Shown piece after piece: positions 45,001-48,000 of a DNA stretch of 64,000 nucleotides. Numbering within the stretch: the first letter of the stretch is position 1; each line of letters starts with the position of its first letter. A program made the position numbers. Source of the stretch: an uncultured Planctomycetia bacterium (lineage in GTDB: Bacteria > Omnitrophota > Gorgyraeia > Duberdicusellales > 4484-171); NCBI GenBank assembly GCA_964629655.1, contig CAZVQU010000001.1, positions 228,056 to 292,055 on the forward strand, written 5' to 3'.

Positions 45001-48000
45001 ATCTCTTCCATCGTTTCTGTAGGAAAACCTACCATCATGTAAATATTTGTTTGAATTCCATACCGTCTAGACATTCGTATAGCATTAAAAATATCCTCAT
45101 CCTTAATATTCTTTCTTATTACTTGATTCCTAATCCTAGGATTACCCGACTCAATACCAAAAAAGATATTAAAACAGCCAGCCTCTGCCATCTTTTTAAT
45201 CAATTCACCATCAACTAGATCTACTCTTGTATTCATCATCCATCGCGCTTTTAATTTACGCTTAATAATTTCACTACACATATCTATAATTTTATTCCGA
45301 TGAAGAGTCATGGTGTCGCAGACAAAAGAATACCTACCTCCGTATCGGTCATGTATCTGCTCCATCTCATCTACAATATTTTTCCCTGACCTTGCTCGAT
45401 ATTTAGCTCTATTACGAGGCTTGCAACAAAATGTACAGGCATAAGGACAACCCCGTGAAGCAATCATAGTTGCCATAGGTTTAGCCCCTTTTTTTTCGTG
45501 AGGACTGTAGTAATCATTAGGATCTATAAGATGATGGGCAGGCAAGGGTAGCTCATCAAGGTTCTCAATGACATCAGCATAAATGATTCCTTTAACTTTC
45601 TCGCCTTTAAAAACACGTCTAGCTATGTTAGACATTACCTTTTCGCCTTCTCCGACAACACCAAAATCAAAGAAAGGAAAACGGTCTATAAAATCAGGAT
45701 CGGTGCTGATATGCATTCCACCCAAGCCTACTACTATCGAGTTGTCGCATTCTTTTTTAATAGCTTTAGCTATTTGAACAGCGCTCCTTATCCCAAAAGT
45801 TAATGCTGAAATACCTATAATTTTAGGTTTTTCTTTTTTTATATTCTTTATAATATCGCCAAGAGTCAATCTTTGCGGGGCAGGATCGTAGAGCCTTACC
45901 GAAAACCCTTCTTTTTCCAGACTTGACCCTATATACAAAAGGCCAACAGGAGGATTTGATGTTTGATCACCTACCGGAACTTTTAAATTATTAAAATCAA
46001 TAGGGCTATGAATTAGAACTACATCTGACATGCCTACACTTTTATGCCTTTAATATAATTAAAAACTGCTAATTTATTGATTAAGGGAATTTTATTAAGT
46101 GCTCTATTTAAAGGAACAACAAATCTACATATCTTAGCCCACCGGCTGGGAAGAAGTCCATATCTATCAACCTGAATGGAAGTTAAACCGTTGTCCCGAT
46201 AAAGTTTTGTTATCCTTGGCAAATTACAAGATAAAAAACCTCTCTCTATCTCCCAAAGTCCTTTTACAAGATAAAGCGGATAAAACAAAGGATTATAGGG
46301 ATTGGGATCAAAAGAAGCTACCCAGCCACCAGGCCTGACTGATTTTACCACATTGGAAAAGATTAGCCTTCTTTTCTCATAATTTAAATGGTGGATAACA
46401 CCCGCTAATATTGCCCCGTCAAAAGATTCTTCAAAAAGATCTTCTTCAAAGTTAGAATTAATAAGTGTTAACCCCTGAAACAATTGTTCCTTTTCGGCTT
46501 GTTCTTTTAGGGCTAAAAGGGAATTTTTTGAAATGTCAACTGCGCTAACCCGATGCCCCCGCCTCAAGAGATGCATTGTCCATCTTCCGTAACCACAACC
46601 TAATTCCAAAATATTCTGAGGTAACTTCGGATCAACAAAATTCAAAAATGAATTTATCCCATCCAGCAATACCCACGAATCATCGCTGTCGGTCTCATAA
46701 TGCTCAGCCTTGCTGTCAAAAAAATATTTCTGTTTTAACTCCTGAATATTAGTCATTTTTGTCACTGCGATTTGTTATAATAGGCTTCCAAAATCCCTAC
46801 TAGTCTGGGACAAAAAATCCCCTTATCGCGATATCGTAAGAAAAAAGCATAAATAGTTACTGAAACTACTGCTTTAATTAAAGAAAAGATCATAATTAGG
46901 AATAAAGCTAAAGGCATGATATTAAATACTGCCCCTAAGACAATAAGATAACGTAAAGTGAAAAATAAAATAAAAATAAATTTTGTAGGTATTATGATGT
47001 TGATAACAATGATTTCTATTAAATGTAATTTATTGGCCTCAAGGAATTTTACAAAATCTGGAGCCCCCTTATAAAAAGCATCAAGTCCAAAACTCTTAAT
47101 GAATTGGTACCCCATACGATTGGATATTACAACTCCGACAATAGTTAATAACCCCACCGGCAGCCAAAAAGTAACACCCTTAGTAAGAATAACGCCATAA
47201 ATAATGGCACAGATAAGCATATTTTGCCAGACAAAATCAAGCATTGGGTCAAGCCAACCACCAAGCTTTGTCTGCATTTGTTTCGTTTGGGCTATTGCCC
47301 CATCTATGTAGTCAAAAATCGCACTTAACCCACAAAAAAACAACCCTAAAAGATTACCGAGATATGTTCCTCGAGAAAAAAAGAATACCGCTAATAAATT
47401 GTTGACGAAAAAATTTATAAGACTTATTTGGTTTGGAGTGACCCCCAATTTATCAAAAAGATTAAGAAATCCCTTAATTGATAAGTTATAAATAAAATTA
47501 CAAATAAAATCTGGTTGTTCTTTTCTAGATAATTTGCTCATTTCCTACCGCCTTTGATAAGCATTTTTACAGTTACAATTACATCATTAACATCCTTTTG
47601 GCTAAGAGCTGCTGAGAGAGGTATAGAGATTATTCGTTTAGAAACATAATAAGCATTAGGGAAATCACTAGGTTTATACAAAAATTTCTCCCGGTAATAT
47701 TTCTCTAAATGGAGAGAAGTAAAATGAATTCCGGTTCCAATATTCTTCTTATATAGTTGTTCCTGGAATTCATCTCTATCCATTCCAACCTTCTTCTTAT
47801 CTACTAATAATGTATACAGATGATAAGCATGACGTGTATCCGTCTCTGGCTCTCTTGGGATTTCCACTCCCAAGCTTTTAAAGGCATCATTGTATTTTTG
47901 CCAGATTTTCTTCCTTTTTTTTGAATATTTTTCTATCTGCTTTAGCTGTTGAATACCGATACCTGCCTGTAAATCAGTCATATTGTATTTATAGCCCGGA

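Follow-up and report, generated by a model that had tools for sequence, protein, structure and literature searches.

A divergent CDP-alcohol phosphotransferase-fold protein of an Omnitrophota glycan locus and its possible role in surface-polysaccharide decoration

The closest solved relative, by sequence and by fold, of the membrane protein studied here is AF2299 of Archaeoglobus fulgidus (PDB 4o6m, 4o6n and 4q7c), a member of the CDP-alcohol phosphotransferase family (Pfam PF01066, class I CDP-AP). Our protein is encoded in a 64,000-nt stretch (hereafter the window) of contig CAZVQU010000001.1 from an uncultured Omnitrophota bacterium (GCA_964629655.1), within a region of glycan genes (Table 1). 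The PNPase encoded in the window identifies the source as Candidatus Omnitrophota, with 75% identity to a protein of an Omnitrophota MAG and with Omnitrophota accounting for five of the six matches that follow (53-57%). Both proteins carry the family signature on transmembrane helices 2 and 3 (TM2 and TM3) together with the P(D/N)xx(T/S) motif, and AF2299 binds soluble CDP-glycerol (PMC4634129). However, AF2299 has the canonical signature Arg and an N-terminal cytidylyltransferase-like cytosolic domain, both of which the window protein lacks. Identity between the two is ~23%, and the window protein has a longer C-terminal membrane region with an F-T-x-R-Y motif of its own. Neither AF2299 nor DIPPS processes lipids; their CDP donors, CDP-glycerol and CDP-inositol, are soluble (PMC4634129).

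The bifunctional inositol-1-phosphate cytidylyltransferase / CDP-inositol phosphotransferase IPCT-DIPPS (PDB 4mnd) follows a two-step logic shared by the window, in which a nucleotidyltransferase makes CDP-X and a PF01066 domain transfers the head group. Here the two predicted activities lie in separate genes five open reading frames (ORFs) apart, in a glycan cluster and not in compatible-solute synthesis, and no inositol-phosphate synthase was seen in the window. Against the IPCT-DIPPS model NF041135, the nucleotidyltransferase of the window matched the N-terminal IPCT half with 54.6 bits and the PF01066 protein the DIPPS half with 41.7 bits, both far below the cutoff of 580. The Pnt and Lic pathways are alike in moving a cytidylyl-activated small phosphoryl or phosphonyl head group to a cell-surface glycan, but their proposed transferases are LicD-like and not of the PF01066 family (PMC6697681).

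Precedents for PF01066 enzymes that accept phosphonates activated with cytidine monophosphate (CMP), and that incorporate imported 2-aminoethylphosphonate (AEP), are predicted or proposed. They comprise the 'Burkholderiales_CDP-OH' family (PMC8942020) and eukaryotic EPT1 with CMP-AEP (PMC9765203), in which a PF01066 enzyme is paired with CMP-phosphonate formation. PF01066 genes in clusters with the phosphoenolpyruvate (PEP) mutase gene (Ppm) are already known as a bioinformatic class under the former name (PMC8942020). Whereas that family is accompanied by lipid-synthesis genes and AEP, the subfamily described here occurs with glycan genes for a GT4 glycosyltransferase, a DegT aminotransferase and a methyltransferase and, in its Ppm-linked members, with an iron-containing alcohol dehydrogenase (Fe-ADH) that points to 2-hydroxyethylphosphonate (HEP). 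Phosphonate-decorated polysaccharides are thought to explain much of the phosphonate synthesis in bacteria and much of the high-molecular-weight phosphonate in the sea (PMC6697681, PMC8942020, PMC8931226), and the step that transfers the phosphonyl group from a CMP-phosphonate to the glycan is unassigned to an enzyme (PMC6697681). Our literature search retrieved no report of a glycan-associated PF01066 subfamily or of a characterised phosphonoglycan transferase.

We propose, with a probability of about 55%, that the window protein is a functional membrane enzyme of a rare, uncharacterised PF01066 subfamily dedicated to surface-glycan loci, where it would decorate the glycan by the mechanism outlined below. 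Since relatives in the subfamily adjoin phosphonate-making genes, the most likely role of the protein is to attach a small phosphorus-containing group to a surface polysaccharide, and not to make membrane phospholipid.

Fold, signature and selection

The protein matched PF01066 with 37.1 bits (gathering cutoff 22, E 5.1e-9; Pfam). An AlphaFold (AF2) model built from a 50-sequence alignment (pLDDT 92.5, pTM 0.89) predicts a CDP-alcohol phosphotransferase fold of six transmembrane helices with the signature on TM2/TM3. Foldseek searches with this model retrieved AF2299 (TMq 0.62), then mycobacterial phosphatidylinositol phosphate (PIP) synthases and DIPPS (~0.5), all with probability 1.0. Among solved sequences AF2299 was likewise the closest (E 4.7e-11), followed by IPCT-DIPPS (5e-5) and PgsA1 (3e-3). 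Besides the IPCT-DIPPS model, every other NCBIfam equivalog fell short of its cutoff: archaetidylinositol-phosphate synthase (51.3 bits against 180), PIP synthase (39.8 against 170), ClsA (28.7 against 240), PgsA (22.9 against 109.1) and PssA (16.8 against 107). That the protein might be a conventional phospholipid synthase, a possibility raised in an earlier note made from the sequence alone, is contradicted by these missed cutoffs and by a glycan context in all 11 recovered homologue loci.

All four signature Asp residues and both Gly residues are present at canonical spacing (D77, D80, G81, G94, D98 and D102). The first three Asp positions (D1 to D3) bind metal and the fourth (D4) is the catalytic base (PMC4634129). 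The Ala-Arg pair of the signature reads A84-Q85, so the canonical Arg is missing; the Gln codon is CAA at 47287..47289 on the minus strand. The motif that contacts the cytosine ring, P(D/N)xx(T/S) (PMC4634129), is kept as P36-N37-Q-I-S40, and a cytidine-nucleotide donor is therefore expected. Farther along, in the C-terminal membrane half, the subfamily has the motif F194-T195-x-R197-Y198, whose Arg occurs in 52 of 70 members. No characterised PF01066 enzyme has this motif, which may serve to bind the acceptor.

Only one other signature-bearing ORF was present in the window. This is pgsA, a canonical housekeeping paralogue of the same Pfam family, with the same core Asp/Gly signature and ~22% identity to the protein studied here. 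It differs in length (189 versus 259 aa), in its score against TIGR00560 (138.5 versus 22.9 bits), in having the canonical Arg (DFFDGYIAR, i.e., DG-YI-AR; motif at 15700..15777, minus strand) and in position, beside rimO and outside the glycan region. The earlier note had described this contrast between a canonical pgsA and a CDP-alcohol phosphotransferase paralogue in a glycan locus reading DGAIAQ-x8-G-x3-D-x3-D. The translation of the gene bears out the variant signature, TIGR00560 supports pgsA, and the PF01066 match of the paralogue falls inside the ~41-kb glycan region.

Six contigs of independent samples encode an identical protein, and Gln is also present in two diverged relatives (82-83% identical), one of which uses the codon CAG in place of CAA. 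Sequencing error is thereby ruled out. Aligned to the profile of the subfamily, 170 relatives showed Arg at this position in 85%, Lys in 7%, Gln in 1.8% and other residues (V, E, H, S, L, T, I) in 6%. The remaining signature positions were more uniform (D1 100%, D2 99%, first Gly 100%, second Gly 99%, Ala 96%, D4 94%), with the exception of D3, which was Asp in 84% and Glu in 15%. By this alignment, Arg is prevalent but not invariant in the branch and, together with D3, is its least constrained signature residue. Gln was confined to 3 of the 170 relatives, all from the protein's own clade (≥82% identical). The next relatives, beginning with P0004 at 53% identity, have Arg. The earlier note had reckoned with Gln being common at this site as a point that would speak against it; as Gln is rare among the 170 relatives, this objection falls. 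Q85 aligns with the Arg of 'DGEIAR' in AF2299. Two positions after the Arg site, Lys or Arg is found in 69% of relatives, and K87 is kept in the window protein.

Published work shows the Arg to be important, though not in every case essential. Eight residues, the signature Arg among them, have been described as absolutely conserved (PMC4634129). In MjPSS the corresponding Arg49 coordinates the CDP phosphates and compensates their charge (PMC8633023). Replacement of this Arg severely reduced activity in yeast ScCpt1 and in AfDIPPS (cited in PMC8727905), and Candida Cho1 R133A had wild-type activity, for which its authors suggest compensation by nearby basic residues (PMC8727905).

Selection was estimated from the window gene and the two diverged members of its Gln clade (L098 and L099). 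At dS ~0.46-0.56, dN/dS was 0.18-0.24; the adjacent DegT gene gave 0.11. Residues 64-103, the motif region, were almost invariant across the three sequences despite dS ~0.5. The Gln codons were CAA, CAA and CAG (AGA for the Arg of a sister sequence), and this synonymous difference indicates that Gln itself is maintained. On these substitution patterns we read the gene as alive and under purifying selection, with Gln fixed and selected.

At ten positions the Gln clade has a fixed residue that ≥60% of Arg-bearing relatives do not share. Of these positions, four (R85Q, K86T, G88Q and S91T) fall in residues 85-91 of the TM2-TM3 loop, which changes from ARKRG..S to AQTKQ..T with the loss of two positive charges. 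The N-terminal juxtamembrane segment has acquired two Lys residues, K6 and K7, in a stretch aligned with low confidence (pLDDT ~60). R85Q, a clade-specific change at the most tolerant signature position, is part of a remodelled TM2-TM3 loop and probably retunes donor binding without abolishing catalysis. A fixed and selected Arg-to-Gln change at a site described as absolutely conserved offers a natural experiment on the role of the Arg, as does the Asp3-to-Glu change described below. In itself the substitution is a modest curiosity; the glycan-dedicated subfamily is the more valuable outcome.

The subfamily is rare: among 5.8 billion proteins a word-indexed search returned 9 matches to the protein, and of the 1.84 billion cluster representatives compared by exhaustive phmmer only 12 reached E<1e-30 and 84 reached E<1e-10. 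A scan of genome contigs with the subfamily alignment found no relative, and a metagenome scan found 3 loci only.

Gene context of the subfamily and the phosphonate link

Genomic context was recovered for 11 homologues, and the relatives with known context form three lineages (A, B and C). Every one of the 11 loci is a glycan cluster with some combination of DegT, methyltransferase and GT4 genes. DegT is a neighbour in most loci, and the methyltransferase gene adjoins the PF01066 gene in eight (three of six in lineage A and all five in lineages B and C).

Lineage A is that of the window gene and further includes L008 (protein P0004), L013 (P0159; the same as L010), L009 (P0006) and L011. Its members keep parts of the order DegT - PF01066 - [methyltransferase / B12-binding radical S-adenosylmethionine enzyme (B12-rSAM)] - nucleotide-sugar 6-dehydrogenase (UGDH) - epimerase, sometimes with a formyltransferase or sulfotransferase. 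The full order is present in the window. L013 has the same order minus the methyltransferase/rSAM insert, with conserved UGDH and SDR epimerase genes and a counterpart of the window B12-rSAM with a hydrophobic C-terminus. In L008 a counterpart of the AprD4-like B12-rSAM adjoins the homologue and UGDH lies downstream. Gln does not define the subfamily, as the closest relatives have Arg in the same gene context. No Ppm gene was seen in lineage A contexts, and no nucleotidyltransferase gene was found in the ~17 kb read around the L013 homologue (6.4 kb upstream and 10 kb downstream).

Lineage B consists of a single locus, L006 (P0008), whose PF01066 protein is 38% identical to that of the window. 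The gene order is B12-rSAM - methyltransferase - PF01066 - DegT - PEP-mutase-like - split Ppd - Fe-ADH - PF01467 cytidylyltransferase. Four further genes are shared with the window, namely two B12-rSAM genes (36% and 43% identity; the former is the one with the hydrophobic C-terminus), the GT4 gene of the operon (32%) and a GT2 gene (32%). Locus L006 (1-13708; JAWVGW010006843.1, GCA_040384425.1) also has HNH and NUMOD4 homing-endonuclease genes interspersed in the glycan plus phosphonate cluster, many short ORFs, the split Ppd and a truncated DegT, and looks phage-like or heavily invaded. A tblastn search of a phage collection with the window protein gave no match, so no viral link is established.

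Lineage C comprises P0160, P0163, P0164, P0165, P0166 and P0062, with identities of 45-61% among them; sequence alone placed P0062 here. In four of five loci the order DegT - methyltransferase - GT4 - PF01066 is followed by a cytidylyltransferase-Ppm fusion, Ppd and Fe-ADH, and the fifth locus (L017) ends after the PF01066 gene. The GT4 gene is directly upstream of the PF01066 gene and overlaps it in four of the five loci.

Taken over both lineages, five loci have the PF01066 gene beside Ppm, Ppd, Fe-ADH and PF01467 cytidylyltransferase genes. In four of these loci the cytidylyltransferase and Ppm form one Fom1-like fusion; L006 encodes the cytidylyltransferase separately. All three fused Ppm proteins examined (L014-L016) carry the diagnostic motif EDKxxxxxNS, and L006 has EDNxxxxxNS. 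Fom1 consists of a PF01467 cytidylyltransferase and Ppm, and its cytidylyltransferase domain makes CMP-HEP (PMC6697681); Fe-ADH enzymes such as PhpC make HEP (PMC6697681, PMC8942020). Because the adjoining Fom1-like cytidylyltransferase-Ppm, Ppd and Fe-ADH together would make CMP-HEP, this compound is almost certainly the donor in the Ppm-linked relatives, judging from gene content. Placed repeatedly between GT4 and the Fom1-like cytidylyltransferase-Ppm/Ppd/Fe-ADH block, this small, sequence-distinct subfamily provides a concrete candidate for the transferase. The Ppm-linked members of lineage C also show a second non-canonical signature variant, Asp3-to-Glu (WLE..LD) with the Arg kept (L014 10001-10759, L015 10001-10759, L016 8001-8759 and P0160), which correlates with the CMP-HEP-type neighbourhoods.

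The candidate supplier of a CMP-activated donor in the window is a single ORF that joins an XRE-type helix-turn-helix (HTH) domain (residues ~20-83) to a PF12804 nucleotidyltransferase domain (residues 133-384). In PDB searches the latter domain resembled the CTP:phosphocholine cytidylyltransferase LicC (1jyk, 3.7e-17) and PntC-AEPT of T. denticola (6pd1, 1.3e-7). The specificity of PntC-type cytidylyltransferases is mainly steric (PMC6697681), and an attempt to choose between LicC, PntC and IPCT specificity from sequence was abandoned for this reason. It is unusual for a small-molecule cytidylyltransferase to carry a DNA-binding domain, which could link regulation to activation of the head group.

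The earlier note had paired this nucleotidyltransferase with the PF01066 protein as a two-step module. The pairing gains from the LicC/PntC similarity, from the five homologues linked to Ppm and cytidylyltransferase genes, and from nucleotidyltransferase-PF01066 fusions among distant relatives (P0167 and P0169) that match both window proteins (2e-10 and 3e-15). These fusions lend Rosetta-stone support, with only the conserved N-terminal 61 residues of the nucleotidyltransferase aligning. The pairing is weakened by the distance of five genes between the partners and by the Arg-bearing relative L013, which shows no nucleotidyltransferase in the ~17 kb read. The phosphonate angle, seen in the Ppm-linked homologues and in an importer of the locus, had been missed.

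This importer is an ABC transporter of the phosphonate/phosphite type, consisting of a PhnD-PhnE fusion (521 aa), PhnC and a second PhnD. Glycan genes on both sides show that it is embedded in the glycan region. PhnE exceeded its equivalog cutoff (275.4 versus 216.7 bits). Both PhnD copies passed TIGR01098, a broader phosphate/phosphite/phosphonate-binding subfamily model (173.9 and 146.8 versus 112 bits), and missed the PhnD equivalog cutoff (184.9 and 161.2 versus 261.1 bits). The ligand was unreadable from PDB similarity: PtxB, 3n5l and PhnD scored about equally (1e-19 to 7e-21), i.e., binders of phosphite (PtxB) and of alkylphosphonate (PhnD) alike. The DUF2490 protein encoded between PhnD and the nucleotidyltransferase is possibly an outer-membrane channel.

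Pfam searches covered 45 of the larger ORFs of the window, among them all those of ≥100 aa from 22.7 to 64 kb. Neither these searches nor tblastn with the L006 proteins found Ppm, Ppd or Fe-ADH in the window. In contrast to the Pnt and Lic pathways, no LicA or other kinase able to make X-phosphate and no LicD was present among the scanned ORFs, and no AEPT was found in the window. There was no LicB-type choline transporter among the scanned ORFs of the locus, in which the PhnCDE-type importer is the only transporter.

Proposed reaction and alternative explanations

The reaction that we propose would begin with the LicC/PntC-like domain, which would activate a small phosphoryl or phosphonyl head group with CMP to give a soluble donor. 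The active site of the PF01066 protein, with its Asp-bound metal and catalytic D102, would lie at the cytoplasmic membrane face, where an acceptor hydroxyl would attack the distal phosphorus and CMP would be released. Ahead of flipping by Wzx, a sugar in the undecaprenyl-linked repeat unit would provide this hydroxyl; a glycolipid is a less likely acceptor. The glycan would be left with a phosph(on)o-diester decoration. As the weakest and most speculative step, the head group in this genome may be a phosphonate imported by PhnCDE. The window member is an atypical, Ppm-less and possibly salvage-fed variant of the glycan-dedicated subfamily. A more ambitious version would make the subfamily the missing phosphonoglycan transferase, moving CMP-activated HEP or AEP to surface polysaccharides, and would have the Gln85 clade of Omnitrophota adapted to PhnCDE-scavenged phosphonates without a PEP mutase of its own; we regard this combined claim as rather unlikely.

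Several points weigh against glycan decoration by this enzyme. The subfamily is uncharacterised, and the case is built on sequence, a model and gene context. Three loci of the protein's lineage (the window, L008 and L013) have no Ppm nearby and L013 also has no nucleotidyltransferase in the ~17 kb read, which leaves the donor of this lineage undefined. The PhnCDE-type transporter could simply serve phosphorus nutrition, and the nucleotidyltransferase could act on a sugar-1-phosphate. Finally, ScCpt1 and AfDIPPS lost much of their activity when the Arg was replaced (cited in PMC8727905). This last result also underlies the view that loss of the Arg, one of the eight absolutely conserved residues (PMC4634129), inactivated the enzyme and left a decaying or non-catalytic, scaffolding paralogue. 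We consider this very unlikely given the dN/dS values and the near-invariant motif region, the retention of all metal-binding and catalytic Asp residues and the survival of Gln through a synonymous codon change. Furthermore, 15% of relatives lack Arg at the site, Cho1 R133A is active (PMC8727905) and K87 is kept.

Other explanations concern the acceptor and the donor. The enzyme could use a lipid acceptor, placing a phosphono- or phospholipid head group on diacylglycerol or acting on a polyprenyl-linked anchor or primer. The best-known PF01066 class has lipid acceptors, and the C-terminal half of the subfamily proteins is extended and hydrophobic and includes the conserved F-T-x-R-Y. In addition, phosphonolipids are the predicted products of the 'Burkholderiales_CDP-OH' Ppm neighbourhoods (PMC8942020), and in a diatom imported AEP is proposed to enter lipids via CMP-AEP and EPT1 (PMC9765203). 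However, every recovered context is a glycosyltransferase or amino-sugar cluster, often with GT4 overlapping the gene, no acyltransferase or lipid-synthesis gene adjoins the PF01066 gene in these contexts, and the closest relatives by fold and sequence use soluble substrates on both sides (PMC4634129); a lipid acceptor is thus unlikely. Highly improbable is a conventional phospholipid head-group synthase (for phosphatidylinositol or PIP, phosphatidylserine, phosphatidylglycerol phosphate or cardiolipin) that merely lies inside the glycan region. The archaetidylinositol-phosphate synthase and PIP synthase models are indeed the best NCBIfam similarities, but 51 and 40 bits are far under the cutoffs of 180 and 170. 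A bona fide pgsA is present elsewhere in the window, the glycan context recurs in 11 of 11 homologue loci with Ppm adjacency in five, and the start and stop codons of the gene overlap DegT and the methyltransferase gene.

The specificity switch suggested in the earlier note, by which R85Q would adapt the clade to a CDP- or CMP-linked head group unlike that of its Arg-bearing sisters, is possible but doubtful. It agrees with the clustering of four of the ten clade-fixed differences in residues 85-91, where two positive charges are lost beside the donor phosphates, and with the role of the signature Arg in offsetting the charge of these phosphates (PMC8633023). The donor-substituent pocket of AF2299 lies between the juxtamembrane helix and TM2 (PMC4634129), and the low-confidence gain of K6 and K7 falls in the juxtamembrane region. 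Against this, the Arg position is the most variable in the branch (15% non-Arg), Cho1 R133A is active (PMC8727905), and the other two Gln sequences have only 1-3 kb of context. The switch also lacks independent support, as the neighbours of the Arg-bearing sister P0004 (B12-rSAM and UGDH) are the same.

The glycan region and other features of the window

The PF01066 gene lies in a co-directional glycan region of ~41 kb, extending from 22.7 kb to at least 64 kb (Table 1). The operon order is GT4 - B12-rSAM - DegT - PF01066 - methyltransferase - B12-rSAM - UGDH - SDR epimerase - HTH-nucleotidyltransferase. The DegT stop codon overlaps the start of the PF01066 gene (ATGA), and the stop codon of the PF01066 gene overlaps a GTG at the methyltransferase gene. 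The HTH-nucleotidyltransferase gene is directly followed by those for the DUF2490 protein, PhnD, PhnC and the PhnD-PhnE fusion. Beyond the fusion follow GT4, Wzy_C, GDSL-protein and carbamoyltransferase genes, and the region also includes several GT2 and GT4 genes, a GT9 gene, rmlA and rmlB. The Bac_transf protein indicates assembly on undecaprenyl phosphate.

Table 1. Coordinates and assignments of features in the window.
Feature	Position	Strand	Assignment and evidence
PF01066 gene studied here	46762..47541	-	259 aa, divergent CDP-alcohol phosphotransferase-fold membrane protein
Signature of the PF01066 protein, DYIDGAIAQTKQMQTKLGGWLDPMLD	47236..47313	-	D77xxD80G81xxA84Q85-x8-G94xxxD98xxxD102
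pgsA	15340..15909	-	Canonical PF01066 housekeeping paralogue; TIGR00560 138.5 bits, equivalog cutoff 109.1
HTH-nucleotidyltransferase	41044..42198	-	XRE-HTH fused to LicC/PntC-like PF12804 nucleotidyltransferase; Pfam, NCBIfam
PhnD-PhnE fusion, PhnC, second PhnD	37059..40310	-	ABC importer, phosphonate/phosphite type; NCBIfam, PDB
DUF2490 protein	40332..40979	-	Between PhnD and nucleotidyltransferase; PF10677 86.9 bits
DegT	47538..48722	-	DegT/ArnB-like pyridoxal-phosphate sugar aminotransferase; PF01041 438 bits; ArnB model 404 bits, cutoff 631
Methyltransferase	46034..46765	-	Class I S-adenosylmethionine methyltransferase, directly downstream of the PF01066 gene; Pfam
B12-rSAM, AprD4-like	44613..46031	-	B12-binding radical SAM enzyme; Pfam; PDB 6fd2 7.5e-24
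B12-rSAM, hydrophobic C-terminus	48709..50235	-	B12-binding radical SAM enzyme; Pfam
B12-rSAM, HpnJ-like	57523..58983	-	B12-binding radical SAM enzyme; 162 bits, below cutoff
GT4	50238..51398	-	Glycosyltransferase; Pfam
UGDH	43277..44641	-	Nucleotide-sugar 6-dehydrogenase (UGDH family); TIGR03026 360.6 bits, cutoff 189.8
SDR epimerase/reductase	42306..43265	-	GDP-sugar epimerase / Fcl-like; profile matches
Bac_transf	63346..63987	-	Initiating phosphoglycosyltransferase; PF02397 225 bits
Wzx-like flippase candidate	56252..57526		Polysacc_synt 26.8 bits, just below 28.2 cutoff
Two Wzy_C proteins	34458..35657 and 60708..61937

An Arn (UDP-Ara4N) pathway was considered for the neighbouring genes on account of the ArnB-like DegT, the UGDH and the formyltransferase in L009. 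It was dropped, as the SDR protein is GDP-sugar epimerase / Fcl-like and not ArnA-like, and ArnC, ArnD and ArnT were not found. The presence of three B12-rSAM enzymes in one glycan region, two of them with L006 counterparts, is a separate observation. For Omnitrophota, the locus points to a surface glycan of unusual chemistry that would combine amino sugars, three B12-radical-SAM modifications and a phosph(on)o-ester.

Four minus-strand ORFs had no Pfam match: 28747-30795 (682 aa), 23437-24588 (383 aa), 5321-6499 (392 aa) and 31002-31418 (138 aa). The first and third also had no NCBIfam match, and the first three lie inside or beside the glycan region. At 2014-3243 (minus strand) the window encodes a cofactor-independent phosphoglycerate mutase that passes PRK04200. 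It also gave a secondary, sub-threshold match (260 bits versus a cutoff of 545) to PhpG, the CMP-5'-phosphonoformate transferase of phosphinothricin biosynthesis, probably through shared ancestry only. The minus strand carries nearly all genes of the window (1-64000), and all 2-kb bins but one have negative GC skew, which fits a single replichore with strong gene-strand bias.

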